Shown: in pieces, positions 13,950 to 55,000 of the stretch
Layout: every line of letters begins with the position of its first letter
How positions within the stretch are numbered: the first letter of the stretch is position 1
The notes under the pieces: model-generated
What the model was told of the DNA's origin: nothing
The model's database searches: none
Seen by the model: only the letters and a program-made list of their open reading frames with translations
Assembly (NCBI GenBank): GCA_038087875.1
Contig: CM075994.1
Span: forward strand, 10,728,001 to 10,792,000
Direction: 5' to 3'
DNA length: 64,000 nucleotides
From: Malacoraja senta
Lineage: Eukaryota
Program-made: the position numbers and the translations under genes

Positions 13950-16900
13950 TTACACACCAGGAGCGGAACCGGTGCAGATTGTCAGCCACAGGTTTTCCTC
14001 CCAAGTCCAGAAGAAAGGATAAAGTTTCTCCGTGAATTTATTCCCAGTGAAGGTGTGGAGAAGGGACTTGGTGTCCGCGTCGTAAAGTGAAACTGTCCCG
14101 GACTCATAACTGAGATAAATTCCCACCTTCCCGGGGATGGGACGGGCGGGGAGACGGGATAGAGGGGAGGTATGTGCAACAAACTCGTCACTCTGCCGCC
14201 CGATGCTCCAGACTCCAGTCTCCGTGGACGGTGGATCCTCTCCATTCCTCTCCACAGACTCTGCGGCGACTCCCAGACTCCAGCCACGACACTCCGCCAC
14301 CTCCACCTCCCAGTAGTGTCTCCCCGATGTGAATCCCTCCGATCCCAGCACACACTCCCAGGATCTAAATCTCTTCTCGGTGTCAGGGAGATCCACGCAG
14401 GTCTCGGTACATCTCACCCTCTTCCGATCCTCAGACACCTCAAGCTGCGGACCTGCTGTTTCCGCATCCAGGGTGAGGGAGACTGGGGGGAGAAGCAGAG
14501 AATCAGAGAGTCCCCGGGGGTCTGGGAGAGACTCGGGCGGCGCGGTCCCGGGACCGGGGAGAAGCCGCTCGGCCTCAGACACTGTCGGTCTGATAACTGA
14601 ATCCTTGCTCGAGGTTTCACCCACAACAACATCAAAATAGATAACAGACATCTTTCCCGGAGTGTCCCAACCGGCCAGGTAAGGGGAAATTCGCGGGTTA
14701 TCTGGAATGGGCGGGAGCTGGTGGACGAGGAAAACGAATGCGAAAAGTGAGGATAAACGAGAGATTGCGGGAGGGGATGGAGAAATAAGGCGGATATTTA
14801 AATATCTTAATATAGAAATATAGAAAATAGGTGCAGGAGTAGGCCATTGGGCCCTTCGAGCCTGCACCGCCATTCAATATGATCATGGCTGATCATTCAA
14901 CAATATCCTGTTCCTGCCTTCTCTCCATACCCCCTGATCCCTTTAGCCACAAGGGCCACATCTAACTCCCTCTTAAATATAGCCAATGAACTGGCCTCAA
15001 CTACCTTCTGTGGCAGAGAATTCCACAGATTCACCACTCTCTGTGAAAATGTTTTTCTCATCACGGTCCTAAAAGACTTCCCCCTTTTCTTCAAACTGTG
15101 ACCCCTTGTTCTGGACTTTCCCAACATCGGGAACAATCTTCCTGCATCTAGCCTGTCCAACCCCTTAAGAATTTTGTACGTTTCTATAAGATCCCCCCTC
15201 AATCTTCTAAATTCTAGCGAGTACAAGCCGAGTCTATCCAGTCTTTCTTCATATGAAAGTCCTGCCACCCCAGGAATCAGTCTGGTGAACCTTCTCTGTA
15301 CTCCCTCTCTGGCAAGAATGTCTTTCCTCAGATTAGGAGACCAAACTGTACACAATACTCCAGGTGTTGTTTCGCCAAGGCCCTGTACAACTGCAGTAGA
15401 ATCTCCTTGCTCCTATACTCAAATCCTTTTGCTATGAATGCTAACATACCATTCGCTTTATTCACTGCCTGCTGCACCTGCATGCCTACTTTCAATGAAT
15501 GGTGTACCATGACACCCAGGTCTCGTTGCATTTCCCCTTTTCCGAATCGGCCACCATTTAGATAATAGTCTACTTTCCTGTTCTTGCCACCAAAGTGGAT
15601 AACCTCACATCTATTCACATTATATTGCATCTGCCATGCATTTGCCAACTCACCCAACCTATCCAAGTCACCTTGCAGTCTCCTAGCATCCTTCTCAAGC
15701 TAATACTGCCCCCTAGCTTTGTGTCATCCGCAAACTTGGAGATGTTGCATTCAATTCCCTCGTCCAAATCATTAATATATATTGTAAATAGCTGGGGTCC
15801 CAACACTGAGCCTTGCGGTACCCCACTAGTCACTGCCTGCCATTCTGAAAAGTACCCGTTTACTCCTATTCTTTGCTTCCTGTCTGCCAGCCAGTTCTCT
15901 ATCCACATCAATACTGAACCCCCAATACCATGTGCTTTAAGTGTGCATATTAATCTCTTATGTGGGACCTTGTCAAAAGCCTTCTGAAAGTCCAGATATC
16001 ACACATCCACTGGTTCTCCCTTATCCACTCTACTAGTTACATCCTCGAAAAATACTATAAGATTCGTCAGACATGATTTACCTTTCATAATTCCATGCTG
16101 ACTTTGTCCAATGATCTCACCACTTTCCAAATGTGCTGCTATCCCATCTTTAATAACTGACTCTAGCAATTTCCCCCACTACCGATGTTAGACTAATGGG
16201 TCTGTAATTCCCCGTTTTCTCTCTCCCTCCTTTTTAAAAAGTGGGGTTACATTAGCTACCCTCCAATCCTCAGGTACTACTCCAGAATCTAAAGAGTTTG
16301 GAAAAATTATCAATAATGCATCCACTATTTCTGCGGCTACCTCCTTAAGTACTCTGGGATACAGCCTATCTGGCCCTGGGGATTTATCAGCCTTTAATCC
16401 ATTCAATTTACCTAACACCACTTCCCGACTAACCTGGATTTCACTCAGTTCCTCCATATCATTTGACCCCCGGTCCCCTGCTATTTCCGGCAGATTATTT
16501 ATGTCTTCCTTAGTGAAGACAGAACCAAAGTAGTTATTCAATTGGTCTGCCACATGATCAATTCACCTGTTTCCGACTGCAAGGGACCTACATTTGTTTT
16601 AACTAATCTTTTACTCTTCACATATCTATAAAAACTTTTGCAGTCAGTTTTTATTTTATCTGCCAGTTTTTATGTTATCTGCCAGTTTTCTTTCATAATC
16701 TATTTTCCCTTTCCTAATTAAGCCCATTGTCCTCCTCTGCTGGACTCTAAATTTCTCCCAGTCCTCTGGTAGGCTGCTTTTTCTGGCTAATTCGTATTCT
16801 TCATCTTTTGTTTTTATAGTATCCCTGATTTCCCTTGTTATCCACGGATGCACTACCTTCCCTGATTTATTCTTTTGCCAAACTGGGATGAACAATTGTT

Positions 16901-19900
16901 GTAGTTCATCCATGCAGCCTTTAAATGCCTTCCAATGCATATCCACCATCAACCCTTTAAGAATCAATTCCCAGTTTATCTTGGCCAATTCACGTCTCAT
17001 ACCCTCAAAGTTACCTTTCTTTAAGATGAGAACCCTTGTTTCTGAATTAATTATGTCACTCTCCATCCTAATGAAGAACACAACCATATTATGGTCACTC
17101 TTGCCCAAGGGGCCACGTACAACAAGACTGCTAACTAACGCTTCCTCCGTACTCAATACCCAGTCTAGAATAGCCTGCTCTCTCGTTGGTTCCTCTACAT
17201 GTTGGTTTAGAAAACTATCCTGCATACATTCCAAGAAATCCTCTTCCTCAGCACCCCTGCCAATTTGATTCACCTAATCTATATGTAGATTGAAGTCACC
17301 CATTATAACAGCTTTAGCTTTGTTGCACGCATTTCTAATTTCCTGTTTGATGCCATCCCCAACTCCACTACTGCTGTTAGATGGCCTGTACACAACTCCC
17401 ACTAGCGTTTTCTGCCCCTTAGTGCTTCGCAGCTCTATCCATATTGATTCCACATCCTCCAAGCTAATGTCCTTCCTTTCTATTGCGTTAATCTAACCAG
17501 CAACGCTACCGCACCTCCTTTTCCTTTCTGTCTATCCCTCCTGTATATTCAATATCCCTGGATGTTCAGCTCCCAGCCTTGGTCACCCTGGAGCCATGTC
17601 TCCGTGATCCCAACTATATCGTATTCATTAATAACTATCTGCACATTCAACTCATCCACCTTATTACGAATGCTCCTTGCATTGAGACACAAAGCCTTCA
17701 GGCTTGATTTTACAACACTCTTACCCCTTATACAATTATGTTGAAAAGTGGCCCTTTTTGATTTTTGCCCTGGATTTGTCTGCCTGCCACTTTTACTTTT
17801 CACCTTGCTACCTTTTGCTTCTACCCTCATTCTACACCCCTCTGTCTCTCTGCTCATGCTCCCATCCCGCCTGCCACATTAGTTTGCCAGTAGATGGCTT
17901 GGGAGAGGCAGATTAGAAGATGAGGAAACTGGTGTGAGTGTTAATTAGAGGTGGTTAAAGAGGATGTAGAGATGTGGGGTGGAGTTGCCATGATCATATT
18001 GAACGGGAGTGGACTGGACGCACGAGGCCATCTGCTACTTTCCTTACTTTCTTTAGAGGAGGATGGATTTGATGCGTCTGTACAACCAAGAACACTATGA
18101 TCTCATTGTGAAACAATATGTGAACTTTGCTGGGGGACCAGACAATGTTTTGCATGTAAGGCTGGTCCAGAAAGTGAAGGCAGGTGGGATCCCAGATGAG
18201 TTGTAAAATGGTTCCAAAATTGTCTTGGTGGTTGGAGGTGGAAGGTAGCAGTGGAAGCATGTTCTGCTTGGAGGTCTGTGACTGGTGGTGTGCAGCAGAG
18301 ATCGGTGCTGCAACCTTTGCAGTTTATTTTCTATTTTCGTGGCTTGGATGTGAATGTAGGAGGTGTGAAAAGTACATTTGTGGAGAATGGGAAATGTTGT
18401 GGATAGCGAGGAAGTCTGCCAAAGTCTGCAACAAGATATAGGCTAGATCATCGAAACCTTATTGTCATGCAGGGATATCAATATTGGAGGACGTAATTTT
18501 GTTCACGCACAGAGTTGTAAGAAGTATCAGTTTTACCTCGTTTGATGATATCAGATGTTTCTCTCAATGCCATGTTGTGGAAAAAAGTGAGATCAAACTT
18601 TTCAATCGGTAACGCACCCTCTATCACACCATCTACTACACACATTGTTTGAGCTTCATCACTAAACCTGCAAATATTTAACAGCTGGTTAGAAACTGAG
18701 CATTCGCTGTTTTTTTTTAGCTGTACTATAAAAACATACATTGTTTCAGACAAAAGCATGTCCTACCTCCTCTTGCGAACAGCTTGCTCCTGAAAAAAAT
18801 AAAACACAAATCTAAATAGACTGAGATGGATCATGATCCCGACGGTAGTTATTTCACCAAATTGCTACAAAAAAACCCCTCTGATAATTCCAATTTCCCA
18901 ACTCTTTGCCGCTCTCCCACAGAGAGAAAGTGGATATTGTCGTGGAGAAATCAAACACGGGGGGAAGCATTACTGCGAGTATGCAACTTACGAATCAAAC
19001 CGGGCAGGTCGTGGGATTTTATCTGGAGAAGATGCCAGAGATAATAGGATGGAATATTTTAAGGTCAGCGGTGGATTTAAATGGGTGGGGGTTGGAAATA
19101 TTATCACTACTTGTGGGAAAAAGAAAGATAAAGCCTGGAATGTATGATGGCCTTTAATAAATTCCACAAGAAATGTAGTAAAGAGAACGTGGAACTCGCA
19201 GGGTGGGCTGGACTATATTGCAGATAAATTTAAGTTGAAATGGGATAAATACATGAGGATTCCTGGAATTTGGGGCATTTTTGTCGGTTGTGGTGAGTAG
19301 ATTGACAGATGGAACATTGACCCAGTACTGATTTACTGGTAAATGCAGCATTTATTTCAGTAATTTAACCCACCATTTTGTGACTGTGCACTTTCACTTC
19401 AACAAACTGTAGTGTAACCCCTCACCTTCAGAAATATCACGCCGTCCTTGTGATCTATCTGTTCCTGTAACTTTGAGAGTTCCTCCTGAATGGAATTTAA
19501 ATTATTTTGTATCTCTTGAACATATGACTCCATTGTTTTTACAATTTTCTTCTCTTCTTCCTGGATATCTCCGAGTAAGCGCTGCTCTTTCTCCACGAGA
19601 ATCTGGTGCAGTTCAGCAAACTGGGATGTGACCTGTGACTGAAGGTTGTGTGACTCCTCCTATCAGAGAAAGATAAGATTCAATATATTATGTCACTCTG
19701 AGTGCAGGAAAATGCCATTCGGCCCAACATGTCCATGAGCTTCGTATGTATCTACACTAATCCAATTTTCATGTATTTAATTCGTAGCTTTCATTACCGA
19801 GGCAATTCAAGAGCTTCTCTCAATAATTCTGAAATATTTTGTGAAAGTTATGTACAATCACATAATTCCCATTTCACCAATTCAATTCCCTGCAACCTAA

Positions 19901-21096
19901 ACCATTTATATGTCCATTGACCCTCACAGGACAGAACTAGGTCACCAGAACTAGCAGACAGCAGCACCACTTAGAACAGACTTCATAGAGTCATACAGCA
20001 AGGGGCGTTAGATACCGACCAAGGCGCCCCATCTGCGCTAATTCCACCTGCCCGCATTTGGCCCAGATAGCTCTAAAACTTTTCTCTCCACGAATCTGTT
20101 CAAATACTTTTCAACTGTTGTTATGGTACCTGACTCAACTACCTCTTCTGGCAGCTCGTTCCATGTACCCACTATCAAAGTTGTCCTTCACGTTCCTTTT
20201 AAATCTTTTCCCTCTCACCTAAAACATATACCCTCATATTCTCGCCCACCCCCCTGCTAAGGGTAAAAGACTGACCATCCAACGTATCATTTCGTTTCAT
20301 GATATTATACACCTGCCACAGACAATTCTTCAGACTCCTGCGTTCCAGGGAGTAAAGTCTTTGGCTGCTCAACCTCTCCCAAGAGTTCTGGCTCTCGACT
20401 ACTGTGCTCTATAGAGGTGCCAAATTGTTGCACACATCAAAGGGATTAAATCTACACAAGAACATTAAAGCGACAGCACAAACCTGAACGTCAGAAATGC
20501 TCCATTTCTGTCCTCGCTCCAATCCCTGGATGTATGATTCCGTTTCTGTGAGAAATTTGAAGGTAGATTTCATCTGAGCCTGGGGTTGGGTTTTCAGATC
20601 AGAGAATAAAAATGTCAGAAAATGAACACGACATGACACAATGAAGTGATCAGAATCGGTTTGCTTTTACCTTGTAGTTCGCAACAGCTTCATCTACCGG
20701 CATGACGCTGTGAGACTTGTGTTCCCGCCCAGCTGCACAAGTCACACAGATCAGTTTCTTGTCCGTTTCACAAAACAGCTTCAGTTCTTCCTGATGTTCC
20801 TCGCAGTGAGGTTTACTTTCCTTCGCTTTGAGATTCAGGCTCAGTGTTCGCGCTCTCAGTGTTCGCGCTTTCTCAGACAGTCTCGCCAAGGCCCGATTCA
20901 CCCTGAGGGTGCGGTCTGTAAACTCCTCTCTACATTCCGGGCAGGGGTTTCTCCTCTCCCTGTCCCAACTCCGTGTGATGCAGGAGCGGCAGAAGTTGTG
21001 CCCACACTCCAGTGACACCGGATCGGTGAAGAGATCCAGGCAGATGGGACAAACTACCTCCTCGGTCCAACTCTCGACCTGGTCTTTCGCAGCCAT
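13950..21096 (-). CDS. TRIM gene B, apparently intact RING-B-box-CC-PRY/SPRY protein (~480 aa). Exons 20671-21096, 20484-20579, 19426-19659, 18767-18789, 18537-18667, 13950-14482
   Basis: All six exons have GT/AG boundaries; 426+96+234+23+131+533=1443 bp in frame. Last exon has B30.2 motifs ([32 protein letters not shown]). Confidence 0.92.
14809..17883 (-). mobile_element. CR1-clade LINE (APE endonuclease + RT ORF2, frameshifted) in intron 5 of gene B
   Basis: ORF pieces [24 protein letters not shown] (APE) and [17 protein letters not shown] (RT), plus a CR1 C-terminus ([18 protein letters not shown]). Empty site visible in gene C at ~25508. Confidence 0.93.
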
Positions 21097-21172
21097 TTTA
21101 AATCCTCCACTAACTGCTTCAAAATGTATTCACTGACGTGGAGCTGCTGAATATGGTCATGGTCAGGTGACC

Positions 21173-21445
21173 GTCACGGCGGCGCAGCGGTAGAGTTGCT
21201 GCAATGCAGCGAATGCAGCGCCGGAGAACTGAGTTCGATGCTGACTACGGGTGCTGTCTGTACAGAGTTTGTACGTTCTCCCGTGATCTGCGTGCTTTTT
21301 TCTCCGAAATCTTGGGTTCTTCAGAGGCTTGGCAAAAGTAACAAATGTCCCTAGTGGCTGTAGGATGGTGTTAATGTGCGCGGATCGCTGGTCGGCGCGG
21401 ACCCAGTGGGCCGAAGGGCCTGTTTGCGCGCTGTATCACGAAACT
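21173..21445 (+). mobile_element. HE1/V-SINE-like SINE upstream of gene B
   Basis: Paralogue of 1945-2206. Confidence 0.8.
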
Positions 21446-21871
21446 CAACAGTACTGTGTCGCTGCGCCCGCTGCCGTCCCGGGCAATGAGCGCTATTTTA
21501 CCTCAAGTGTTCAGTGTGAAGATTTCCTGGCCTCCAACTCATCTCACACGAGGGAGGGGCAGATTGCACATTAAACTGGCCTGAATATGGACGAGAAAGA
21601 CTAAGGCAGGACAGAATGGGACGGGGCCCGGCGCTGAGGAAGCCTCGGGTGGAACCTGAGGAGGCGTTGCACCTGTTGGGCAGCGGAACCCGCCGCCCGC
21701 ATCTCCGTTCACAGCCCGGAGACCTCCCACCGCCCTTATTTTATTCCACAAACGTGCACCTGTCTCTCATGCAGCAGTCTTCGGGGCAAACTATGTTTGC
21801 GTGTATTGTTTAAACGATATTATATAACGATCTAAAATTCATTGCAGTTTGCAAAGGTTTACTTTGTCTGT

Positions 21872-21899
21872 CTGAAGAAGGGTCTCGACCCGAAACGTC
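21872..21899 (+). ncRNA. Putative minimal hammerhead motif (identical cores at 8015, 23469, 59449)
   Basis: CTGAAGA-A-GGGT(CTCG)ACCC-GAAA-C-GTC. Confidence 0.55.
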
Positions 21900-21984
21900 A
21901 CCCATTCATTCTATCCATAGATGCTGCCTCACCCAATGAGTATCTCCAGCAGTTTTGTCGACCAGATTCTTTGTCTGCTGATCA

Positions 21985-24659: not shown

Positions 24660-27600
24660 TTACACACCCGGAGCGGAACCGGAGCAGATTCTCAGCCACT
24701 GGTTTTCATGGCAAGTCCAGAAGAGAGGATAAAGTGTCTCCGTGAATTTATTCCCGGTGAAGGTGTGGAGATGGCACTTGGTGTCCGCGTCGTAAAATGA
24801 AACTGTCCCGGACTCGTAACTGAGATAAACTCCCACCCTCCCTGGGATGGGACGGGCGGGAAGATGGGATGGAGGAGAGGAGAGAGCAATAAACCCGTCA
24901 TCCAGCCGCCAGATGCTCCAGACACCATTCCCCGGGGTCAGGTCGTCCTCTCCTTTCCTATCCACAGACTCTGCGACGACTCCCAGACTCCAGATCCGAT
25001 TCTCCGCCACCTCCACCTCCCAGTAATGTCTCCCCGATGTGAATCCCTCCGATCCCAGCACACACGGATAGTCTGTAAATCTCTTCCCGGTGTCAGGGAG
25101 ACTCCTCCGGGTCTCGATCCGTCTCACGCTCTTCTGATCCTTAGACACCTCGAGCTGCGAATGCGCTGTTTCCACATCCAGGGTGACGGAGACTGGGGGG
25201 AGAAGGAGAGAATCAGAGAGTCCCCGGGGGTCTGGGGGAGACTCGGGCAGCGCGGCCCCGGGACCGGGGGAGAAGCCGCTTGGCCTCAGGCACAAGCGGG
25301 CGGTCAGCCCAGCAACATCGGATGGCCAAAAGATATATCTTTCCCTGAGCTTCACGACCGGGCACCGCTGGAGAGGGGGGAATTCTGCGGGTTATTGGGA
25401 ACGGGAGGGGGTGGTCCGTACGGACGTGGAAAACGAATACGGAAAGTGAGGATGAACGGAAGATTGTGGGTGGGGACAGATAAATAAGGCGGCTATTTAA
25501 ATATCTTGCCAGCAGATGGCGAGGGAGAGGCAGATTGGAAGATGAGGAGACGGGTGTGAGTGGTAATTAGAGGTGGTTAAAGAGGATGTAGAGATGTGGG
25601 GTGGAGTTGCCGTGATCATACTGAACGGGAGTGGACTGGACGAGCGAGACAATCTGCTACTGTTTAATTGCTTTCTTTACTGGAGGGTGTAATTGGTGCG
25701 TCTGTACAACCAAGAACACTCTGATCTCATTGTGAACCAATATATGAACTTCACTGAGGGATTTGACAATGGTCCGCATGTAAGGCTGGTCCGGAAGCGT
25801 CTTGGATCCCACCTGCGAAAGCAGGTGGGATCCAAGACGAGTTGTAAAATTGTTCCAAAAGTGTCTTGGTGGTTGGAGGTGGAAGGTAGCAGTGGAAGGA
25901 TGTTCTGCTTGGAGGTCTGTGACTGGTGGTGTGCAGCAGAGATCGGTGCTGCAACCTTTGCTGTTTATTTTCTATTTTCGTGGCTTGGATGTGAATGTAG
26001 GAGGTTTGAAAATTACTTTTGTGGAGAATGGGAAATGTAGATAGCGATGAAGTCTGTCAAAGTCTGCAACAAGATATAGGCTAGATCATCAAATTGTCAT
26101 GTAGGGATATCAATACTGGAGGACGCAGTTTTCTTCACACAAAGAGTTGTTAAGAGGTATCAGTTTTACCTCGTTTGATGATGTCAGATGTTTCTCTCAA
26201 TGCCATGTTGTGGAAAAACGTGAGATCAAACCTTTCAATGGGAAACGCACCATCTACCACCAACATTGGTTTGGTTTCATCACTAACCCTGCAAATATTT
26301 AACAGCTGGTTAGAAACTGAGCATTAGCTGTTTTTTTGAGCTGTACTATAAAAACATACATTGTTTCAGTCAAAAGCATGTCCTACCTACTCTTGCGACC
26401 AGCTTCCTCCTGAAATAAATAAAACACAAATCTCAATAGACTGAGATGGATCATGATCCCGACGGCGGGTATTTCACCAAATTGCTGGAAACCCCTCCAT
26501 GATAATTCCCATTTCCCAACTATTTGCCGCTGTCACACAGACAGAAAGTGGATATTGTCATAGAGACATCGAACACGGGGGGAAGCATTAGGAATATCGA
26601 TGAAAATAACTGCGAGTATACAACTTACGAGTGGGCAGATCGTGGGATTTAATCTGGAGAAGATGTCAGAGATAATAGGATGCAATATTTTAAGATCAGC
26701 GGCGGATTTAAATGGGTGGGGATTGGAAATATTATCACGACTTGTGGGGAAAATAAAAATAAAGCCTGGAATGTATGATGGCCTGTAATAAATTCCACAA
26801 GAAATGTAGTAAAGAGAACGTGGAACTCACAGGCTGGCCTGAAGATAATATTGCAGATAAATGAAGAGGGATAAGTACATGAGGATTCCTGGAATTTGGG
26901 GCATTATTGTCGAATGTGGTGAGTAGATGGAACAGACGGAACATTGAGCCAGTACTGAATTACTGGTAAATGCAGCATTTATTTCAGAAATTTAACCCAC
27001 CATTTTGTGACTGCACTTTCCCTTCACCAAACTGTAGTGTAACCCCTCACCTTCAGAAATAACACGCTGTCCTTGTGGTCTGTCTGTTCTTGTAGCTTTG
27101 AGAGTTCCTCCTGAATGGAATTTAAATACTCTTGAATCTCTTGAAGATTTTTCTCCATTGTTTTTACAATCATCGCCTCTTCTTCCCGGATATCTCCGAG
27201 TAAGCGCTGCTCTTTCTCGGTGAGAATCTGGTGCAGTTCAGCAAACTGGGATGTGGTCTGTGACTGAAGGTTGCGTGACGTTTCCTGTCAGATGAAAGAT
27301 GAGAATCAATATATTGTGTCACTCTGCTGTGTTTCCTCATGACATGGAAGGTGACATTTGGCTAATCAATGTCGAGTCCTGGAGTGCAGAAATGTGCCAT
27401 TCTGCCCAAAATGCCCATGCTGGGCTCTGTACGTATCTACATTAATCCCATTTGCATGTATTCAATCCGTAGTTTTCATTACCGTGGCTAATCAAGAGCT
27501 CGTCTTGATAATTCTGAAATACTTGGTGAAAGTAATGTACAAGCAAATCATTCCCATTTCCCAAGTACTATTCCCTGCAACTTATTCCATTTTGTGTGTC

Positions 27601-28743
27601 CATTAACCCTCAGTGAACAGAACCAGGTCACCAGAACTAGCAGACAGCAGCACCACTTAGAATGACAGACTTCATAGAGTCATACAGCAAGGGGTGTTAG
27701 ATACCGACCAAGACGCCCCATCTGCGCTATATCTACCTGTCCGCATTTGGCCCACCTGGTTCTAAAATGTTCTCTCCACGAACTTGTTCAAATATTTTTT
27801 AAATATTGTTATGGTTCGTGAATCAACTACCTCCCCTGGCAGCGCGTTCCATATGCCCACTACCAAAGTTGCCCTCTCACCTTAAACCTATGCCCTCGCA
27901 TGTTGGACGTCCTACATAGTGTAAAAGACTGCGAATTCACCCTAACATTTCGTTTCATGATATAATACACCTGCAATAGATCATTCTTCAGACTCCTGCG
28001 CTCCAGTGAGTAAAGTCCTTGGCTGCCCAACCGCTACCTAGATCTCGGCCCCTCGACTACTGAGCTCTATAGAGGTGCCCACTTATTACACGCGACACAG
28101 GGATCAAATCTACACAAAAACATTAAATCGATAGTACAAAGCCTCACCTGAACTCCAGAAATGCTCTCTTTCTGTTTCTGCTCCATTTGCTCGATCTCTG
28201 ATTTACTTTCTGTGAGAGAGTTGAAAGAAGATTTCACCTGTTCCTGGGGTTGGATTTCAGACGTAGAATAAAAATGTCAGACAATAAAGAAAAGATTACA
28301 CATTTATGCAATCAAAATCGATTTGGTTTTACCTTTTAGAATTCAATTGCTTCTTCTATCATCATTAAGCGGTGAGACTTGTGTTCCAGCTCAGTGGCGC
28401 AAATCTCACAGATCAGTTTCTTTTCAGTTTCACAAAACAGCTTCAGTACCTCCTGATGTTTCTCGCAGTGAAGTTTATTTTCCTTCTCTTTGAGATTCAG
28501 GCTCAGTGCTCGAGCTTTCTCAGCCAGTCTAACCAAGGGCCGATTCACCCTGAGGGTGCGGTCTGTAAACTCCTCTCTACATTCCGGGCAGGAGTTTCTC
28601 CCCTCCCTGTCCCAACTCTGTGTGATACAGGAGCGGCATAAGTTGTGCTCACACTCCAGTGACACCGGATCGGTGAAGAAATCCAGGCAGATGGGACAAA
28701 CTAGCTCCTCGGTTAAACTCTCGACCTGGTCTTTCGAAGCCAT
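24660..28743 (-). pseudogene. TRIM gene C with a premature stop (TAC>TAA, 28336-28338) at the end of exon 1. Exons 28333-28743, 28148-28243, 27051-27284, 26387-26409, 26170-26288, 24660-25192
   Basis: Paralogues end exon 1 with ..YK|GT; C reads IEF*K|GT. The other exons and splice sites look intact. Confidence 0.82.
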
Positions 28744-30161: not shown

Positions 30162-30164
<3 letters not shown>

Positions 30165-37800: not shown

Positions 37801-40800
37801 TATAAAACACCAAGTGCAGGAACACAGCGTAGCAGGCAGCATTTCACGAGGATGTGGATTGGTGACGCTTCGGTTCGGCCCCCTCCTGTACATCGTTGAG
37901 ACCAAGCGTAGACTAAGCGAACCAGATCCGTGGAACATCCCGGTTGCACAACATTCCAACTCCACTTCTCATTTCCATATTGTCCTACGCAAAATGGAGG
38001 ATCAGCACCTCATATTCCGTTCGGGTAGTTTACAACACAGCAGAATGAACATTGAAATCTCCAATTTTAGGTAACTCCATCTGTCTCCCCTTTACCCTAT
38101 TTCTTCCATGTGCCCAGCCTAATGAGCTTCCACTTTTCGCACCAACCCACTCTCTTTCCCACCCCTCCCCAGAACCCTTACTCCTCCAATCCTCCATCTG
38201 GCTTAACATATCTCTCCTCTTTTCTTACCTGACCTCCTTTTCTATACTTTTCATTTCTAGCCGATGTCCACCCAACTGCCAGGCGAACCTCCCTCGCCTG
38301 TATCCTTTGCTTGTCATGAGGCTTTGACAAACTCCATCGCTTTTCCAGCTCCCCACCCCTCACAACAACAATCTGAAGAAGGGTCCCGACCCGAAATGTC
38401 ACCCATCCAAATCCCCCACAGATGTTGCCTAACCCGCAGAGTTCCTCCAACACTTGTTTTTTTCCCTCAGTTTATTAGGAATGATGGTTCACATCACAAC
38501 AGAAACAATTCTGTAGAACTTTAGAAGCTGCTGAAAATTCCCATTTCCCCACTCTGACCCCTGCTGACATGGATTGAGTATATTACACGAATGGACAAAG
38601 AACCAAGGGAGCATGTGTAAGGAGTGTTAGTGAACAATCTGCCATTAATCTGAGGATCAAACTTACCGGAAAGACTGCACACTTCGTGTGCTTTTTGGGC
38701 TAATAAAAGGGAAATTAATGGAATTTAATATTATCTGGTTTAGAACATGTGTCAGGGGTGTGGGCAGAAAGCAGGAGAATATGATTAGGACAGGTAGATC
38801 AGCCACGATTGAATGGCGGAGTAGACTTGATGGGCGAATTCTGTTCCTATCACTTCTGATCGTATGAACTTATTATTGTCACGTGTACTGAGGTACGGTG
38901 AAAAGCGTTTGTTTACATGCTGTCCTGTCAAAGAAAATACTGTACATGAATAAAAATAAGCCGACCAGTGTAGAGATAAAGGGTACAACATTTAGTGCAA
39001 GATTATACATTGAAATATCAGGTAATGATAAGAAAGTGAATTGAAGATAAAAGATCAGGTGGTCTTTCAAAAGTTCCAATAGAGATTTAGTCAAGATAAT
39101 ATAGAACCCTCTACCACAGGAGTGGTAATTTCATGGGGAGGTGGATAAAGGTGGATAACCACGAGAGATGTGGCAACTGTGGGCACTGCTGGTGGATGTT
39201 GTGAGTAGGTGGGGAGAGGCTTGTGCGGATCAGGACAACTGACAGCAGTGGATGGGCGGAATGTCCATGATGTAGAGAGGGGAATTTGGGGCATTATTGT
39301 CGGATGTGGTGAGTAGATGGAACAGACGGAACATTGACCCAGTACTGAATTACTGGTAAATGCAGCATTTATTTCAGAAATTTAACCCGCCATTTTGTGA
39401 CTGTGCACTTTCACTTATCCATACTGTAGTGTAACCCCTCACCTTCAGAAACATCACGCCGTCCTTGTGGTCTATCTGTTCCTGTAACTTTGAGAGTTCC
39501 TCTTGAATAGAGTTTAAATTCTCTTGAATCTCTTGAAGATTTTTCTTCATTCTTTTTACAATCTTTTTCTCTTCCTCCCGGATATCTCCAAGTAAGCGCT
39601 GCTCTTTCTCAGTGAATATTTGGTGCAGTTCAGCAAACAGGGATGTCATCTGTGACTGAACGTTTTGTGACTCTTCCTGTCAGATGAAAGATCAAAATCA
39701 ATATATTATGTCAATCTGCTGTGTTTCCTCATGACATGGAAGGTGACATTTGGCTAGTGAATCACGAGTCCTGAAGTGCAGAAATAAGCCCTTCGGACCA
39801 CAATGTCCGTGCTGGACTCTGTACGTATCTACACTAATTCCATTTACCCATAAGTTATCCATAGCTTGGCAATTCAAGAGCGCGTCTTGATAATTCTGAA
39901 ATATCTGGTGAAAGTAATGTAACCGACCAAGACCTTATCTAATCGGTTTAATTGTGTAATTAACCGGATTTGATAAAGGGAACTTGAGGTTAAGAAGCCA
40001 TTAGGAGGAAGTGACCATAATATGGTAAATTTTAATCTGCAATTTGAGAGGGAATAATACAGAAGGTGCAGGATCAGTTTATTCCAAAGAGGAATAAAGA
40101 AACCAATGGGAATAAGGGGTGAGCATGGCTGACAAGGGAAGTCATGGACGGTATAAAAATAAAAGAGAAGTACAACGCAGCAAAGATAAGCGGGATGGAA
40201 GAGGATTCAGTAATGTTTAAGCAGCAACAGAAGATACCAAAAAGGCAACACGGGGAGAAAAATGAGGTCCGAATGTAAGCGAGCCAAGTATATAAAAGAG
40301 GGTAGTAAAAGCTTATTTTGGTATGTGAAGAGGAAAAAATTAGTTAAGACCACAGATGGACCCTTGAAGGCCGCAAAGGTGAATTTATTATGGGGAACAA
40401 GGAAATGGCAGAGGAGTTGAAAATGTACTTTGGATCCGTCTAAGGATGAAACAAATAAGCTTCCTGAAGTACTAGTGGCCACAGGATCTGGGGTGACGGA
40501 TGAACTGAAGTCCACCTTAGGCAAGAAATGGTGTCGGGTAGACTGATGGAACTGAAGGTTGATAAATCCCCAGGGCCTGATCGTCCGCATCCCACGGTAC
40601 TTAAGGAAGTGGCTCTAGAAATCGTGGACGCATTGGTGATAATTTTCCAATGTTTTACAGATTCAGGATCAATTCCTGTGGTTTGTAGGGTAACTAATGT
40701 TATCCCACTTTTAAGAACGGCGGGAGAGAGAAAACAGGGAATTATAGACCAGTTAGCCCTACATCGGTGGTGGGGAAGATGCTGGAGTCAATTATAAAAG

Positions 40801-43800
40801 ATGAAATAGTGGCACATTTGGATAGCAGTAACAGGATCGGTCCGAGTCAGCATGGACTTACGAAGGGGAAATCATGCTTGACTAATCTACTGGAATTTTT
40901 TGAGGATGTAACTAGGAAAATGGACAAGGGAGAGCCAGTGGATGTAGTGTACCTGGACTTTCAGAAAGCATTTGATAAGGTCCCACATCGATCAGTAGGC
41001 AAAATTAGGGTACATGGTATTGGGGGTAGAGTGCTGACATGGATAGAAAATTGGCTGGCAGACAGGGATTAACGGGTCCCTTTCAGAATGGCAGGCAGTG
41101 ACTAATGGGGTACCGCAAGGCTCAGTGCTGGGACGGTATCTATTTACAATATACATCAATGATTTAGACGAAGGGATTCAAAGTAACATTAGCAAATTTG
41201 CAGATGACACAAACCTGGGTGGCAGTGTGAACTGTGAGGAGGGTGCTATGAGAATGCAGGGTGACTTGGACAGGTTGAGTGAGTGGGCAGATGCATGGCA
41301 GGTGTAGTTTAATGTGGGTACATGTGAGATTATCTACTTTAGTAGCTAAAACAGGAAGGCAGATTATTATCTAAATGGTGTCAATTTGGGAAAAGGGTAG
41401 TAAAACAGGATCTGGGGTTCCTTGTTCAACAGTCAATGAAAGTAAGCATGCAGGTCCAGCAGGCAGTGAAGAAAGCGAAGTTGGCTTTCATAACAAGAGA
41501 GTTTCAGTATAGGAGCAAAGAGGTCCTTCTACAGTTGCACAGGGCCCTACTGAGACCACACCTGGAGTATTGTGCGCAGTTTTGGACCCTAATTGGAGGA
41601 ACGACTTTCTTCCTATTGAGGGAGTGCAGTGTAGGTTTACAAGGTTAATTCCCAGGATGACGGGACTGCCATATGCTGATAGAATGGAGTGGCTGGGCAT
41701 GTATACACTAGAAGTTAGAAGGATGAGACATATTGAAACATATAAGATGATTAAGGGTTTGGACACGCTATAGGCAGGAAATATGTTCCCGATGTCGGGG
41801 GAGTCCAGAACCAGGGTCCACAGTTTAATAATAATGGTTAAGCCATTTAGAACGGAGATGAGGAAACACTTTTTCACACAGATAGTTGTGAGTCTGCGGA
41901 ATTCTCTGCCTCAGAGGGTGGTGGAGGCTGGTTCTCTGGATACTTTCAAAAGGGAACTAGATAGGGTTCTTAATGATAGCAGAGTCAGGGGGTATGGGGA
42001 GAAGGCTGGAACGGGGTACTGATTGTGGATGATCAGCCATGATCGCATTGATGGTGGTGCTGGCTCGAAGGGCCGAATGGCCTACTCCTGCACCTATTGT
42101 CTCTTGTCTATTGTGTATTGTCTATTGTCCATTGCCCCATCTGCGCTATTTCCACCTGACCCACCTGGTTCTAAACCTTTCTCTCCACGAATTCGTTCAA
42201 ATATATTTTAAATATTGTTATGGTACCTGAATCAACAACCTCCCCTCACAGCTTGTTCCATATGCGCACTACCAAAGTTGCCCTAAACTGTTCCCTCACA
42301 CCTTAAACCTATGCCCTCGCATGCTCGATGCCCTACTTAGTGTAAAAGACTGAGTATTCACCCTGACATTTCGTTTCGTGATATTATACACCTGCAATTA
42401 TCCTCTTAAAATGAAGGCGAGCCGTGGCTCAATGATACCACCAGAGCCCTAAGAAGAGAATGCAGAAAATCAGAACGGTACAAATCTGATAAGCTTAAAA
42501 TTTCCTTTGAACTCCTGAAAAATAATCTTCACAAATACCAGGAAATAGTAAAATCTGCAAGAACTAAATACTTTTCCTCCCTTATCTCCAAAAACGCGCA
42601 AAATTCCAACGTCCTTTTTAGCACCATCACCTCCATAATTTGTCCTGCCACCAGCACCAGCTTAACTGTGTCCCCTGCTAAGTGCGAGGAATTTACCACA
42701 TTTTTCACCAGCAAGGTAAAGAACATAAGAACGAATATTTCCCCTCCCACCCGTGACCTGGCTGTCTCATTGGTCTGCTCTTCAAAATTAGACTGTTTCC
42801 AAACCGTTACTCTACCCTCCCTTCTAAAACTGATCACCACCATGAAACCTACTACCTGCCCCCTCGACACTGTCCCCTCTGCCCTCCTAAAGGATGTCAT
42901 TACAACAGCTGGTCCCAGCATCCTCGCCATCTTCAACAGCTCTCTGGCCACTGGCACTGTACCTACCTGCTTCAAGCATGAGGTGGTCCAACCACTCCTG
43001 AAAAAAACCTAACCTCGACCCCACCTTGCCAAGCAAATACAGACCCATTTCTAAACTGCCTTAACTCTCAAAAGCCCTTGAAAAGGTAATGTTAAGTCAA
43101 CTTATGCCTTACCTTCACCAAAACACTATTTTGGAAACTTTCCAATCAGGTTTTAGGGCTCACCATAGCACAGAGTCTGCCTTGTTGAAGGTACATAACG
43201 ACCTACTGCTCACCGTTGACTCCGGCGACTGTGCAATCCTGATCCTTCTTGACCTCAGCGCAGCATTTCATACTGTCGACCACACCATCCTAATTGACTG
43301 TCGCCGTTATGGAGTTGGTATTGATGGCATTGCCCTGAGCTGGTTCATCTCCTACCTCAAAGGTAGGAGTTTCTTGACTAACATAGGCAACTCTTTCTCC
43401 TCCCCAGCTAATCTCTGCTGTGGGGTTCCACAAGGTTCCATCCTTGGCCCCATTCTGTTCTCCCTGTATATGCTCCCCTTAGGCCAAGTCATTGAAAGGC
43501 ACGGCATTTCCTTCCATTGCTACGCAGACGATACACAAATCTATCTCCCCCTGAAGCCCAAAAACCAATCAAATCTGCTTAAACTTACCCGCTGCCTCGA
43601 GGATATAAAGTGTTGGATGGCCCAGAACTTCCTCCAACTAAACGAGAGTAAGTCTGAGGTCATCCTTCTCGGCCCCTCGGACTCAATCAAAATGATAGCA
43701 GGCAGCCTTGGAAGCCTTACCCCACTACTCAAACCTCACGTCAAAAACCTTGGCGTGATATTTCACTCGGCACTGAGATTTGACAAACAAGTCAATGCCG

Positions 43801-46800
43801 TGATAAAAGCTAGCTTCTTTCAGCTTCGGACGATAGCTAAAATCAAAAACAATTCCTCCAGTTTGATGACCTCGAAAAGATCATCCACACATTCATCCCC
43901 TCCCGCCTAGATTACTGCAACTCCCTTTACACTGGCATCAGCCAATCTTCCCTGTCCCGCCTGCAACTGGTTCAAAACGCCGCAACGAGACTCCTGACGG
44001 GCACCCGAATAAGGGACCACATCACCCCTATCCTGGCCTCTCTCCACTGGCTCCCTGTGCGGTTCCGTATGAACTTCAAGATCCTCCTCCATGTCTACAA
44101 AGCCCTCAATGGGCTTGCCCCCACCTACATAAAAAGTCTTCTCACCCACCACTCCACCTCCAGGCCCCTCAGATCGGCCGACTTGGGGTTGCTGAATATC
44201 CCACGGTCTAGGCATAAGCTCAGGGGCGACCGCGCCTTTGCGGTAGCAGCCCCTAGACTGTGGAACAGCATCCCCTTTCCCATCAGAACTGTCCCCTCCA
44301 TCGACTCTTTTAAGTCAAGACTAAAAACGTATCTATACTCCCAAGCTTTTCCTGACGTCCTCTGAGTGAGGGCTACATGTATATATGTATATAGTTTGTT
44401 TTGTTTATGCTATTCTTATAACAAATGTAAAGCAATTTGGCCAACGAGAGTTGTTTTTTAAATGTGCTATATAAATAAATGTGACTTGACTTGACTTGCA
44501 ATAGATCATTCTTCAGACACCTGCACTCCAGGGAGTAAAGTCCAGTCACTGTACACCTCCATCCCCCACCAGGATGGTCTCAAAGCCCTCCGTTTTTTCC
44601 TCGACCGTAGAAGCAATCTATACCCGGCCACTGACACCCTCCTCCGCCTAGCGGAGCTGGTACTTACACTTAATAACTTTTCATTTGACTCCTCCCATTT
44701 CCTCCAAATACAAGGCGTAGCTATGGGCACACGCATGGGCCCCAGCTACGCGTGCCTCTTTGTCGGGTACGTAGAACAATCCTTGTTCAATGCGTACCAG
44801 GGCCCCATCCCCGACCTCTACCTCCGCTACATCGATGATTGTTTTGGTGCCACATCCTGCACCCACACACAACTGACTGACTTCATCCGCTTCACCACCA
44901 ACTTCCATCCGGCACTCAAATACACCTGGACCATTTCCGACACTTCCCTACCATTCCTTGACCTCACTATCTCCATCGCAGGTGATAGACTCCTTACCGA
45001 CATCCACTACAAACCTACTGACTCCCATGGCTATCTGGACTACACTTCTTCCCACCCTGCTTCCTGTAAGGACTCCATCCCCCACTCCCAATTCCTCCGT
45101 CTACGCCGCATCTGCTCCCAAGATGAGGCGTTCCACACCAGGGCATCTGAAATGTCCTCATTCTTCAGGGAACGGGGGTTCCCCTCCTCCACCATAGATG
45201 AGGCTCGCACCAGGGTCTCTGCCATACCCCGCAACACTGCTCTCTCTCCCCATCCCCCCACTCACAACAAAGGCAGAGTCCCCCTAGTCCTCACCTTTCA
45301 CCCCACCAGCCGTCACATACAACAAGTGATCCTCCGTCAGTTTCGCCACCTCCAACGTGACCCCACCACTCGCCACATCTTCCCATCTCCCCCTATGTCT
45401 GCCTTCTGCAAAGACCGCTCCCTCCGTAACTCCCTTGTCAATTCTTCCCTTCCCTCCCATACCACCCCCTCCCCTGGTACTTTCCCTTGCAACCGCAAGA
45501 GATGCAACACTTGTCCCTTCACTTCCCCCCTCCACTCCATTCAAGGACCCAAGCAGTCGTTCCAGGTGCGACAGAGGTTCACCTGCATCTCCTCCAACCT
45601 CATCTATTGCATTCGCTGCTCTAGATGCCAGCTGATCTACATCGGTGAGACCAAGCGGAGGCTTGGCGATCGTTTCGCCGAACACCTCCGGTCAGTCCGC
45701 AATAACCAACCTGAACTCCCGGTGGCTCAGCACTTCAACTCCCCCTCCCATTCCGTATCTGACCTCTCTGTCCTGGGTCTCCTCCATGGCCACAGCGAGC
45801 AACACCGTAAATTGGAGGTAATGCACCTCATATTCCGCTTGGGCAGTCTACATCCTGGTGGCCTGAACGTTGAATTCTCCCAATTCTGCTAGCCCTGGCT
45901 GTCCCCTCCCCTTCATCAGCCATCTGGTCGTCTCCTCCCCTCCCCCAGCCCTCGGGCTCCTCCTCCGCCTTTTCCTTTTTTCCTTTCTTCTCCCCACCCC
46001 CTATCAGTCTGAAGAAGGGTTTCGGCCCGAAACGTAACCTATTTCCTTCGCTCCATAGATGCTGCTGCACCCGCTGAGTTTCTCCAGCATTTTTGTGTAC
46101 CTTCGATTTTCCAGCATCTGCAGTTCCTTCTTTTACACAAAGTCCTTGGCTGCCCAACCGCTCCGAAGATCTCGGGTCCTCGACTACTGAGCTCTATAGA
46201 GGTGTCCATTATTACACGCATCACAGGGATCAAATCTACTCAAAATAATTCAATCGATAGTACAAAGCCTCACCTGAACTCCAGAAATGCTCTCTTTCTG
46301 TTCCTGCTCCATTTGCTCGATCTCTGATTTCCTTTCTGTGAGCGATTCGAAAGAAGATTTCGCCTGTTCCTGGGGTTGGATTTCAGATCAGAGAATAAAA
46401 ATGTTAGACAAAAAAGAAAATATTAAACAATGAAATGTTGAAAATTGATTTGGTTTTACCTTGTAGAATACAATTGCTTCATCTACCGGCATTAAGCTGT
46501 GAGTCTTGTGTTCCCGCCCAGCTGCACAAATCACACAGATCAGTTTCCTGTCCGTTTCACAAAACAGCTTCAGTTCTTCCTGATGTTTCTCGCAGTGATG
46601 TTTACTTTTCTTCTCTTTGAGATTCAGGCTCAGTGCTCGCGCTTTCTCAGCCAGTCTAACCAAGGCCCGATTCACCCTGAAGGTGCGGTCTACAAACTCC
46701 TCTCTACATTCAGGGCAGGAGTTTCTCCCCTCCCTGTCCCAACTCTGTGTGATGCAGGAGCGGCAGAAGTTGTGTCCGCACTCCAGTGTCACCGGATCGG

Positions 46801-46870
46801 TGAAGAAATCCAAGCACGTGGGACAAACTGCCTCCTCGGTTAAACTCTCCACCTGGTCTTTCGAAGCCAT
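34878..46870 (-). CDS. TRIM gene D, apparently intact (~476 aa). Exons 46460-46870, 46274-46369, 39443-39676, 37715-37737, 37486(or 37504)-37622, 34878-35407
   Basis: RING/B-box exon, 96 and 234 bp coiled-coil exons, 23 bp mini-exon, exon 5 and PRY/SPRY exon join in frame. Intron 2 is expanded by three retroelements. Confidence 0.88.
36345..37262 (-). mobile_element. Degenerate Penelope element in intron 5 of gene D, interrupted by a CR1 3'-end fragment (~36880-36985)
   Basis: Reverse strand encodes RRLGDRFAEHLRS..VAKHFNS..LEEQQLIF; terminal repeat at ~36345-36430; embedded aggccattcggcccttcgag CR1 tail. Confidence 0.75.
37820..38460. mobile_element. Penelope-derived remnants (GIY-YIG fragment and terminal repeats) in intron 3 of gene D
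   Basis: tacatcgttgagaccaagcg, cagcacctcatattccg and ctgaagaagggtcccgacccgaaa motifs. Confidence 0.65.
39934..42133 (+). mobile_element. 5'-truncated CR1 LINE in intron 2 of gene D
   Basis: RT fragments ([25 protein letters not shown]) and a (ctattgt)n tail. Flanks ccgaccaagac|gccccatctg are contiguous in gene C. Confidence 0.92.
42399..44496 (+). mobile_element. 5'-truncated L2-clade LINE in intron 2 of gene D
   Basis: QSGFRAHHSTESAL, LDLSAAF, GVPQGSILGP, YADDTQIY, GDRAFAVAAPRLWNS; (tgact)n tail; TSD tgcaat at 42393-42398 and 44497-44502. Confidence 0.92.
44544..46138 (+). mobile_element. Penelope-like element (RT C-terminal half, Cys linker, GIY-YIG endonuclease; Neptune-like) with a 3' hammerhead-bearing terminal repeat
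   Basis: Open ORF 44723-45892 with AMG, RYIDD, CNRKRCNTC and NLIYCIRCSRC..YIGET..RFAEH; TSD aaagtcc at 44537-44543 and 46139-46145. Confidence 0.92.
46009..46036 (+). ncRNA. Putative minimal type I hammerhead ribozyme motif in the Penelope terminal repeat
   Basis: CUGAAGA-A-GGGU(UUCG)GCCC-GAAA-C-GUA: conserved core, stem II and a palindromic ACGU stem III. Confidence 0.6.
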
Positions 46871-49344: not shown

Positions 49345-49403
49345 TAATAATAATAATAATAATAGATTTTATTTATATAGCGCTTTTCAGGACTCAAAGT
49401 CGC
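49345..49403 (-). mobile_element. Extremely 5'-truncated L2-type 3' end with a (tat)n tail
   Basis: Reverse strand reads agcgactttgagtcctgaaaagcgctatataaataaaatctattattatt; absent from paralogous CR1 fragments. Confidence 0.65.
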
Positions 49404-52058: not shown

Positions 52059-55000
52059 TTACACACCCGGAGCGGAACCGGAGCAGATTCTCAGCCACAG
52101 GTTTTCCTCCCAAGCCCAGAAGAAGGGATAAAGTTTCTCCGTGAATTGATTCCCAGTGATGGTGTGGAGAAGGGACTTGGTGTCCGCGTCGTAAAATGAA
52201 ACTGTCCCGGACTCGTAACTGAGATAAATTCCCACCTTCCCGGGGATGGGATGGGCAGGGAGACGGGATAGAGGGGAGGTATGTGCAACAAGCTCGTCAC
52301 CCTGCCGCCCGATGCTCCAGACTCCAGTCTCCGTGGACGGCGGTTCCTCTCCATTCCTCTCCACAGACTCTGCGGCGACTCCCAGACTCCAGCCACGACA
52401 CTCCGCCACCTCCACCTCCCAGTAGTGTCTCCCCGATGTGAATCCCTCCGATCCCAGCACACACTCCCAGGATGAAAATCTCTTCTCGGTGTCAGGGAGA
52501 TTCCTGCAGGTCTCGGTACATCTCACCCTCTTCCGATCCTCAGACACCTCGAGCTGTGGCCCCGCTGTTTCCGCATCCAGGGTGAGGGAGACTGGGGGGA
52601 GAAGCAGAGAATAAGAGAGTCCCCGGGGGTCAGGGGGAGATTCGGGCAGCGCGTCCCCGGGACCGGGGAGAAGCCGCTCGGCCTCAGACACAGTCGGTCT
52701 CATAACTGAATCCTTGCTCGAGGTATCACCCACAACAACATCGGATGGCTAAGAGACATCTTTCCCGGAGTGTCCCAACCGGCCAGGTAAGGGGAAATTA
52801 CGTGGGTTATCGGGAACGGGCGTGGGCGTGCGGACGAGGAAAGCGAATGCGTAAAGTGAGGATAAACGAGAGATTACGGGTGGGGATGGAGAAATAAGGC
52901 GGGTATTTAAATATCTTAATATAGAAGTATAGAAAATAGGTGCAGGAGTAGGCCATTCGGCCCTTCGAGCCTGCACTGCCATTCAATATGATCATGGCTA
53001 ATCATCCAACTCAATATCCTGTACCTGCCTTCTCTCCATACCCCTTGATCCCTTTAGCCACAAGGGCCACATTAACTCCCTCTTAAATTTAGCCAATGAA
53101 CTGGCCTCAACTACCTTCTGTGGCACAGAATTCCGCAGATTCACCACTCTCTGTCTGAAAAATGTTTTTCTCATCTCGGTCCTAAAAGACTTCCCTCTTT
53201 TCTTCAAACTGTGACCCCTTGTCCTGGACTTCCCCAACATCGGGAACAATCTTCCTGCATCTAGCCTGTCCAACCCCTTAAGAATTTTGTAATTTCTATA
53301 AGATCCCCCCTCAATCTTCTAAATTCTAGCGAGTACAAGCCAAGTCTATCCAGTCTTTCTTCATATGAACGTCCTGCCATCCCAGGAAAAAGTCTGGTGA
53401 ACCTTCTTTGCACTCCCTCTATGGCAAGAATATCTTTCCTCAGATTAGGAGACCAAAACTGTACAAATACTCCAGGTGTTGTTTCACCAAGGCCCTGTAC
53501 AACTGCAGTAGAACCTCCCTGTTCCTATACACAAATCCTTTTGCTATGAATGCTAACATACCATTCGCTTTATTCACTGCCTGCTGCACCTGCATGCCTA
53601 CATTCTATGAATGGTGTACCATGACACCCAGGTCTCATTGCATTTCCCATTTTCCTAATCGGCCACCATTCAGATAATAGTCTACTTTCCAGTTCTTGCC
53701 ACCAAAGTGGATAACCTCACATTTATTCACATTATATTGCATCTGCCATGCATTTGCCCACTCACCCAACCTATCCAAGTCACCTTGCAGTCTCCTAGCA
53801 TCCTTCTCGCAGCCAATACTGCCCCCTAGCTTCGCGTCATCCGCAAACTTGGAGGTGTTGCATTCAATTCCCTCGTCCAAATCATTAATATATATTGTAA
53901 ATAGCTGGGGTCCCAACACTGAACCTTGCAGTACCCCACTGCCTGCCATTCTGAAAAGTACCCGTTTACTCCTACACTTTGCTTCCTGTCTGCCAGCCAG
54001 TTCTCTATCCACATCAATACTGAACCCCCAATACCGTGTGCTTTAAGTTTGCATATTAATCTCTTATGTGAGACCTTGTCGAAAGCCTTCTGAAAGTCCA
54101 GATATAACACATCCACTGGTTCTCCCTTATCCACTCTACTAGTTACATCCTCGATAAATACTATAAGATTCGTCAGACATGATTTACCTTTCATAAATCC
54201 ATGCTGACTTTGTCCAATGATTTCACCACTTTCAAAATGTGCTGCTATACCATCTTTAATAACTGACTAGCATTTTCCCCCACTACCGATGTTAGACTAA
54301 CGGGTCTGTAATTCCCCGTTTTCTCTCTCCCTCCTTTATAAAAATTGGGGTTACATTAGCTACCCTCCAATCCTCAGGAACTACTCCAGAATCTAAAGTG
54401 TTTTGAAAAATTATCAATAATGCATCCACTATTTCTGGGGCTACTTCCTTAAGTACTCTGGGATGCAGCCTATCTGGCCCTGGAGATTTATCGGCCTTTA
54501 ATCCATTCAATTTACCTAACACCACTTCCCGACTAACCTGGATTTCACTCAGTTCCTCCATCTCATTTGACCCCCAGTCCCCTGCTATTTCCGGCAGATT
54601 ATTTATGTCTTCCTTCAATTGGTCTGCCATGTCAATTCACCTGTTTCTGACTGCAAGGGACCTACATTTGTTTTAACTATTCGTTTACTCTTCACATATC
54701 TATAAAACTTTTGCAGTCAGTTTATGTTATCTGCCAGTTTTCTTTCATAATCTATTTTCCCTTTCCTAATTAAGCCCACTGTCCTCCTCTGCTGGACTAA
54801 ATTTCTCTGGTAGGCTGCTTTTTCTGGCTAATTTGTATGCTTCATCTTTTGTTTTTATAGTATCCCTGATTTCCCTTGTTATCCACGGATGCACTACCTT
54901 CCCTGATTTATTCTTTTGCCAAACTGGGGTGAACAATTGTTGTAGTTCATCCATGCAGCCTTTAAATGCCTTCCAATGCATATCCACCATCAACCCTTTA

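Follow-up and report, generated by a model that had tools for sequence, protein, structure and literature searches.

Four exons that encode PRY/SPRY (B30.2) domains on the minus strand of a 64,000-nucleotide (nt) stretch of the Malacoraja senta genome (contig CM075994.1, positions 10,728,001 to 10,792,000, hereafter the window, numbered from its first letter) belong to a tandem array of class-IV TRIM genes (RING-B-box-coiled coil-B30.2) in this skate-like fish, and we are confident that these domains have evolved under positive selection. The explanation that we consider probable is that, within this TRIM array, the predicted ligand pocket has changed its amino acids well above the neutral rate. 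Ligands of pathogens are the likely driver of this diversification, while gene conversion has likely kept the remainder of the exon similar between TRIM and butyrophilin-like neighbours.

The exons lie at 13950-14482 (gene B), 24660-25192 (gene C), 34878-35407 (gene D) and 52059-52591 (gene E). They measure 533, 533, 530 and 533 nt, respectively, carry an AG acceptor and a stop codon, and each is the last exon of a TRIM gene consisting of a RING/B-box exon, exons of 96, 234, 23 and 119-137 nt, and the B30.2 exon. Pfam detected PRY and SPRY in all four terminal exons; in exon 1 of gene C, zf-C3HC4_4 and zf-B_box scored above cut-off, as did TRIM_CC (PF25600) in exon 3 of gene D. Exon 1 of gene D has the RING-B-box of TRIM21 as its best match (E-value 1e-31). 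The class-IV plan is one open spliced frame in B and D, but not in C (stop codon) or E (frameshift and deletion). Among the best 120 of 1381 matches, all are chondrichthyan, the closest single-domain homologues (76-81% identical) come from the skates Rhinoraja, Leucoraja and Amblyraja, and the names assigned are A33-like, TRIM39-like, TRIM69-like, TRIM21-like and nuclear factor 7-like. The RING matches TRIM69 at 9e-15 and the TRIM21 RING at 2e-18. Membership of the finTRIMs, a teleost-specific clade related to trim16/25, was considered and rejected because the homologues in this best-120 set are all chondrichthyan; TRIM25, a weak RING match beside TRIM21, was counted against it as well.

The original prediction described domains that vary in discrete patches on a nearly invariant scaffold. 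Its coordinates, strand and quoted peptides are all exact, as is the one-residue indel it reported among B, C and D (D is without one codon at position 164). The six patches (positions 24-30, 39-42, 63-66, 79-86, 94-99 and 158-164; in gene B, 14411-14391, 14366-14355, 14294-14283, 14246-14223, 14201-14184 and 14009-13989, minus strand) do differ strongly: B, C and D vary at 31 of the 36 patch positions, and of the 22 three-state sites 15 lie inside the patches. The variable sites are clustered rather than scattered (57 close pairs versus 42.9 after shuffling, p=0.002). The invariance of the scaffold, however, was overstated. Half of the 62 variable positions (of 176) fall outside the patches, at 31 of 140 positions that include further groups at 10-21 and 100-109, and the ratio of nonsynonymous to synonymous rates (omega) there is 0.76 (p=0.3 versus 1), on which grounds we reject a strongly conserved scaffold; purifying selection is seen only in the 87 most conserved columns (omega 0.47, p=0.02). 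Protein identity is 72% for B-C and for B-D and 93% for B-E; E is a recent duplicate of B and not a separate member. The low overall divergence among B, C and D (synonymous divergence, dS, 0.09-0.12) explains much of the apparent invariance. If the scaffold is so similar, strong constraint is less the reason than its young age and, likely, homogenisation. The B/E lineage (13953-14480 and 52062-52589) sits on a long branch (0.76-0.79) and carries changes at columns that are almost fixed in homologues (L2, A6, E35, T86 and L140).

Codon site models were fitted to the four exons with our own GY94 code instead of PAML, and the code was checked by simulation. Twice the log-likelihood difference (2dL) was 21.7 for M1a-M2a (p 2e-5), 24.0 for M7-M8 and 21.4 for M8a-M8 (p 4e-6), with a positively selected class of omega 4.2 on 36% of sites (from four sequences) that was similar under all three frequency models. 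Allowing double and triple hits left 2dL at 15.5 (p 4e-4), and none of 54 null simulations exceeded 6.3, the largest value obtained. To avoid circularity, sites were also classed independently by their entropy across 149 homologous domains, to which 118 of the 120 homologues contributed and from which the domains of the window itself were left out. The 38 columns classed as variable in this way gave omega 4.7 (p 3e-10), or 2.7 (p 0.01) when they were given a synonymous rate of their own, about twice that of the scaffold, and 3.7 (p 0.002) without E. In the intact pair B-D alone, omega was 8.6 at variable columns versus 0.92 (p 8e-10, shared dS). Nonsynonymous divergence (dN) at variable sites is 0.53-0.77 in the five non-sister pairs, whose exon dS of 0.09-0.12 equals the divergence of the 3' flank (0.09-0.12). 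The diversifying selection that had been proposed is thus supported from several sides, omega above 1 being obtained with the site models, with the independently chosen site class, when multiple hits are allowed, against simulated nulls and in the intact pair by itself.

The location of these sites was examined in an AlphaFold model of the D domain built from 38 sequences (predicted local distance difference test score, pLDDT, 89.8), which replaces a weak four-sequence model (pLDDT 70); the earlier, weaker model had matched the B30.2 folds of BTN3A and TRIM21 at a template-modelling score of about 0.75. In this prediction a single long loop contains patches 24-30 and 39-42, patches 63-66 and 79-86 are also situated in loops, and 94-99 and 158-164 occupy hairpins and the ends of strands. 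Variation is not confined to loops: 11 of the 38 hypervariable columns fall on predicted strands, where many of them alternate i, i+2. The stretches 25-42, 79-86, 94-109 and 158-164 are putative counterparts of v1-v4 of TRIM5alpha. Hypervariability recurs at the same columns when lineages are taken separately (rho 0.48-0.59 between the four TRIM sets compared). The phosphoantigen pocket of BTN3A1 is reported to be formed by H351, H378, K393, R412, R418 and R469 (PMC4303140). Counted along the alignments, these residues align with positions 41, 68, 83, 101, 107 and 158, all six of which are variable among B, C and D (base rate 35%), with a mean entropy of 2.40 versus 0.85 (p 3e-5); positions 68, 101 and 107 fall outside the patches first noted. 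Taken together, the BTN3A1 alignment and the predicted secondary structure would place the selected sites on the ligand-binding face. The B30.2 domains may recognise different ligands. The proposed diversification of the recognition surface is supported, with variable sites that cover a known B30.2 pocket; as C and E are broken genes, the working repertoire in the window amounts to two domains (B and D).

Since butyrophilin-like proteins were among the closest matches, butyrophilins were sampled more widely, taking the best 120 per similarity listing. From 318 proteins, 211 with one B30.2 and a clean RING or immunoglobulin (Ig) front end were retained (200 distinct), and fused or partial models were dropped; a quick tree was made from a 124-row subsample and a careful one from 37 rows, hand-picked after the quick one. 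In these protein trees the B30.2 domains group by animal lineage, with TRIM and butyrophilin mixed, contrary to family membership. Mixed clades were recovered for skates (support 100/99), stingrays and mantas (96/89), horn shark (100/98), carpet sharks (100/94), lamniforms (99/94) and sawshark (96/85). Monophyly of the TRIMs was rejected in the 37-row tree (approximately unbiased test, p 1e-6), as was monophyly of the mixed butyrophilins (5e-28), a group defined after the tree had been seen, and a second butyrophilin subfamily, which holds a B30.2 clade of its own (100/100), serves as an internal control. At lineage-diagnostic cells, taken from columns in which two lineages have unlike TRIM consensus residues, the butyrophilin consensus equals the TRIM of its own lineage in 243 of 248 and that of the other lineage in 3. 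The butyrophilins that entered this count were chosen after the earlier sorting and tree (skates, 5 of 6; stingrays and mantas, 11 of 11; catsharks, 4 of 6; lamniforms, 4 of 7; sawshark, 1 of 3), and its ten lineage pairs reuse columns. Scaffold identity between butyrophilins and TRIMs is 0.93-0.97 within lineages and 0.82-0.91 between them, and in 58 skate TRIMs the B30.2 scaffold averages 0.95 identity while the RING/B-box averages 0.79. The domains of the window belong to the skate clade (100/99), although their branches are long (scaffold identity 0.86-0.89), and the nearest path from the D domain leads to a Leucoraja butyrophilin. TRIM and butyrophilin records of one species often share the same longest contig size, which fits physical linkage. 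In four Rhinoraja butyrophilins (P0054, P0114, P0121 and P0122), the Ig domains are 91-98% alike but the B30.2 domains only 82-86%, so that on sequence comparison their diversity sits on the cytoplasmic side. Overall, the lineage-wise grouping points to a likely lasting exchange of B30.2 exons between TRIMs and one set of butyrophilin-like genes.

Several results weigh against selection on a pocket shared through conversion. Omega is 0.85 in exon 1 and 1.05 over exons 1-3, and exons 2-3 also carry a class above 1 (omega 3.8, p 8e-4); because constraint is weak across the whole gene, the contrast offered by the B30.2 exon is one of degree. Variable sites have a synonymous rate raised by a factor of about 1.5-2.2, and when this rate is left free, the 23 most variable columns no longer give a significant omega above 1 in the fit to all four genes (p 0.09). 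The youngest pair, B-E, has no excess (omega 0.62), the window holds three independent lineages only, the codon code is self-written, and the homologues are proteins from automatic gene models. Pocket entropy is low in five skate butyrophilins (0.37) as against stingray/manta butyrophilins (1.77), a poor fit to a simple shared pocket. With regard to conversion, there is no mosaic among the four window exons, where 23 of 23 informative sites back one tree (in their 3' flank, 3 of 5 sites conflict), and linkage does not decay with distance in the 58 skate TRIM domains (r2 about 0.035, permutation p 0.50), a flat profile that cannot tell conversion from recurrent mutation. No butyrophilin gene lies within the window. 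Divergence between B and E is 0.04-0.09 around the B30.2 exon versus 0.01-0.03 over exons 1-5, but since intron 5 is at 0.01-0.05 we do not count this step as evidence of conversion.

Some of these observations would be expected if homogenisation were patchy and positive selection absent, conversion wiping out scaffold differences while old or imported divergence stays in the patches, so that dN/dS is inflated because dS comes from the converted scaffold. The raised synonymous rate at variable sites, the loss of significance for the 23 top sites, and a skate scaffold identity far above that of the RING/B-box are all in its favour. However, a separate synonymous rate leaves omega at 2.35-3.9 in six of six fits, significant at 0.05 in five of them, the recurrence of the same hypervariable columns in separate lineages of the four TRIM sets argues against it, and escape from conversion would itself require selection at those sites; we consider it unlikely. 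Relaxed selection, in which surface residues of a decaying array drift and no adaptive repertoire exists, would account for two of four genes being broken, for the deletion of one unit and for omega near 1 in exons 1-3 and outside the patches. Drift cannot yield omega above 1, though, and the M8a-M8 comparison and the value for the intact B-D pair largely refute it in its pure form, which we reject; moreover, the B30.2 frames are open in all four genes and their core columns are constrained (omega 0.47). As a whole, relaxed selection appears very improbable.

It may also be that positive selection is real but that the sharing between TRIMs and butyrophilins comes from chimeric gene models or from repeated one-off exon capture. 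Fused models are many in these clusters, the homologues are best-120 listings picked by similarity, the 'shared' butyrophilins were defined after the tree was seen, and at least two Ig types carry shared domains, as repeated capture would have it. Yet skates, rays and sharks have homologous membrane anchors and linkers ahead of the B30.2, no butyrophilin B30.2 in the set is more than 92% identical to that of any TRIM, the sharing extends to each of the 11 stingray/manta butyrophilins and to all but one of the six from skates, and the four Rhinoraja butyrophilins combine similar Ig domains with dissimilar B30.2 domains. This account has, in our judgement, little chance of being correct.

Returning to pathogen-driven diversification with conversion, the favoured explanation, conversion or unequal crossover among linked B30.2 exons would homogenise the scaffold and spread variants, while ligand selection, most likely from pathogens, would keep the pockets different. 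By analogy with TRIM5, TRIM21 and harbiTRIM, the intact proteins would dimerise via the coiled coil, the B30.2 face would bind a cytosolic microbial target, and the RING would ubiquitinate it. A broader and rather doubtful extension is that in sharks and rays one common, constantly reshuffled and positively selected pool of B30.2 pockets feeds both cytosolic TRIM ligases and the cytoplasmic tails of butyrophilin-like receptors, linking innate restriction to butyrophilin signalling. If so, a pathogen-shaped pocket could trigger either intracellular degradation or inside-out signalling to gamma-delta T cells, and the oldest jawed vertebrates would possess a germline-diversified sensing repertoire that makes this link.

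As a whole, the window consists of a tandem array on the minus strand in which long blocks resemble one another, and the genes described below, like the junction near 7600, are on that strand. Gene B (13950..21096; exons 21096-20671, 20579-20484, 19659-19426, 18789-18767, 18667-18537 and 14482-13950) encodes an intact TRIM of 480 amino acids (aa), with an open spliced frame and GT-AG at every intron; its last exon was assigned by Pfam domains and by splice and frame analysis. It carries a five-codon tandem duplication between RING and B-box (in 20671-21096) and a four-codon insertion in exon 5 (18537-18667). Gene D (34878..46870; exons 46870-46460, 46369-46274, 39676-39443, 37737-37715, 37622-37486 and 35407-34878), the second intact TRIM (476 aa, open spliced frame), ends in the B30.2 exon that is one codon shorter, as seen in the sequence and modelled above. 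Its exons 4-5 (37486-37737) are of another type than those of B and C, its exon 5 donor lies 18 bases further on, as in Leucoraja P0037, and dS to the other genes is 0.22-0.27 in exon 3 versus about 0.10 in exon 1, so that gene D looks like a mosaic of paralogue types.

Gene C (24660..28743; exons 28743-28333, 28243-28148, 27284-27051, 26409-26387, 26288-26170 and 25192-24660) is a probable pseudogene: as assembled, its codon 136 (28338-28336) reads TAA instead of the TAC found in the four paralogues. Gene A, its recent duplicate, is represented by exons 1-3 (1876-1466, 1376-1281 and 424-191; 191..1876), its B30.2 exon falling beyond the left end of the window. Exon 1 of C (28333-28743) differs from its twin by 14 replacements and 2 silent changes, RING and B-box positions among them, an excess that is consistent with decay once the stop had arisen. 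Gene E (52059..58661) is a pseudogene duplicate of B, as assembled, with a 1-nt loss in exon 1 at about 58457 and a 448-base-pair (bp) deletion at about 56365 that takes out the greater part of exon 4 together with the whole of exon 5; because of this deletion, the frame would be broken even if the 1-base loss were an assembly error. In exon 2 (coiled coil; 20484-20579 and 58066-58161), B and E differ from A, C and D by some 20 replacements in 32 codons (dN 0.32-0.36). The pairs B/E and A/C are recent, mostly with 1-6% divergence. At about 7600 (7540..7660) a junction fuses a pre-RING flank to a post-B30.2 flank over a 3-base microhomology, CGG; one side corresponds to sequence some 370 bp upstream of the RING exon in B/E, the other to sequence a few hundred bases downstream of a B30.2 stop; it appears to be the scar of a whole TRIM gene deleted between A and B. 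Units of the array therefore duplicate (A/C and B/E) and die (C, E and the deleted unit), a pattern of birth and death. At the right end, 58800-64000 is the upstream flank of a further unit, 95% like 7600-12540, and the array likely continues on both sides of the window. Of 24 sequencing runs that a search brought up, none contained half of the words sought, and no RNA run was among them. The introns at 14809-18337, 40307-45900 and 52918-56365 hold decayed reverse-transcriptase-like frames, which we take to be of long interspersed nuclear element (LINE) and Penelope type; the insertion of this kind in intron 5 is common to B and E.

That B30.2 loops evolve under positive selection was to be expected, and the finding mainly extends this pattern to cartilaginous fish; the extension across the TRIM and butyrophilin families, as far as sequence comparison can carry it, is the more surprising and more important result. 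A literature search, which covered subscription papers and supplements thinly, found no report of B30.2 selection or of TRIM-butyrophilin exchange in cartilaginous fish. If the exons are re-synchronised in each lineage, B30.2 trees would be unusable for assigning orthologues here, butyrophilins of these animals would still be acquiring B30.2 domains from TRIMs, and pocket variants could be tested in two protein contexts. A practical outcome is a short list of pocket positions, together with two intact genes (B and D), for ligand and restriction screens.

Among known systems, the teleost finTRIM, btr (trim39-like) and trim35 families are likewise expanded arrays of class-IV TRIMs in which, according to the two reports, M1a/M2a and M7/M8 comparisons concentrate positive selection in the B30.2 variable loops, and recombination breakpoints occur in ftr and btr (PMC2657112, PMC3137616). 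In contrast to the genes described here, finTRIMs are related to trim16/25 and were not found in elephant shark, the selected fraction in the teleost families is 4.5-18% versus about 36% in our four sequences, and the word butyrophilin occurs once and zero times in the two texts, so that sharing with butyrophilins was not their subject (PMC2657112, PMC3137616). In squamates, the harbiTRIM locus shows recombination among TRIM, butyrophilin and orphan PRY-SPRY domains, and restriction of flavivirus capsid has been demonstrated, whereas the skate array is known here from sequence alone; in that report, TRIMs located in the region of the MHC (major histocompatibility complex) are described as showing limited recombination (PMC12262214). 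What differs here from harbiTRIM is that homogenisation follows lineage, in at least six groups of sharks and rays, and goes together with a strong omega above 1. The zebrafish NLR-B30.2 genes reportedly have a B30.2 exon converted across groups with distinct N-terminal parts, together with positive selection on exposed residues (10.1101/027151); conversion there runs across NLR groups, and here it would run across a cytosolic E3 ligase and a membrane receptor with Ig domains. In sharks, a TRIM69-annotated expansion on the MHC chromosome averages 18 copies, with 13 copies on chromosome 37 of the bamboo shark, and the text makes no mention of B30.2 or SPRY and hence presents no domain-level selection analysis (PMC7677710); this is probably the same family as our A33-like, TRIM39-like and TRIM69-like records. 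Finally, primate TRIM5alpha shares positive selection in the B30.2 loops, with some in the coiled coil too, but it is a single gene with between-species divergence and large loop indels (PMC11281341), whereas the skate array combines divergence between paralogues, compact loops with a one-codon indel, and change at strand residues of the pocket floor.

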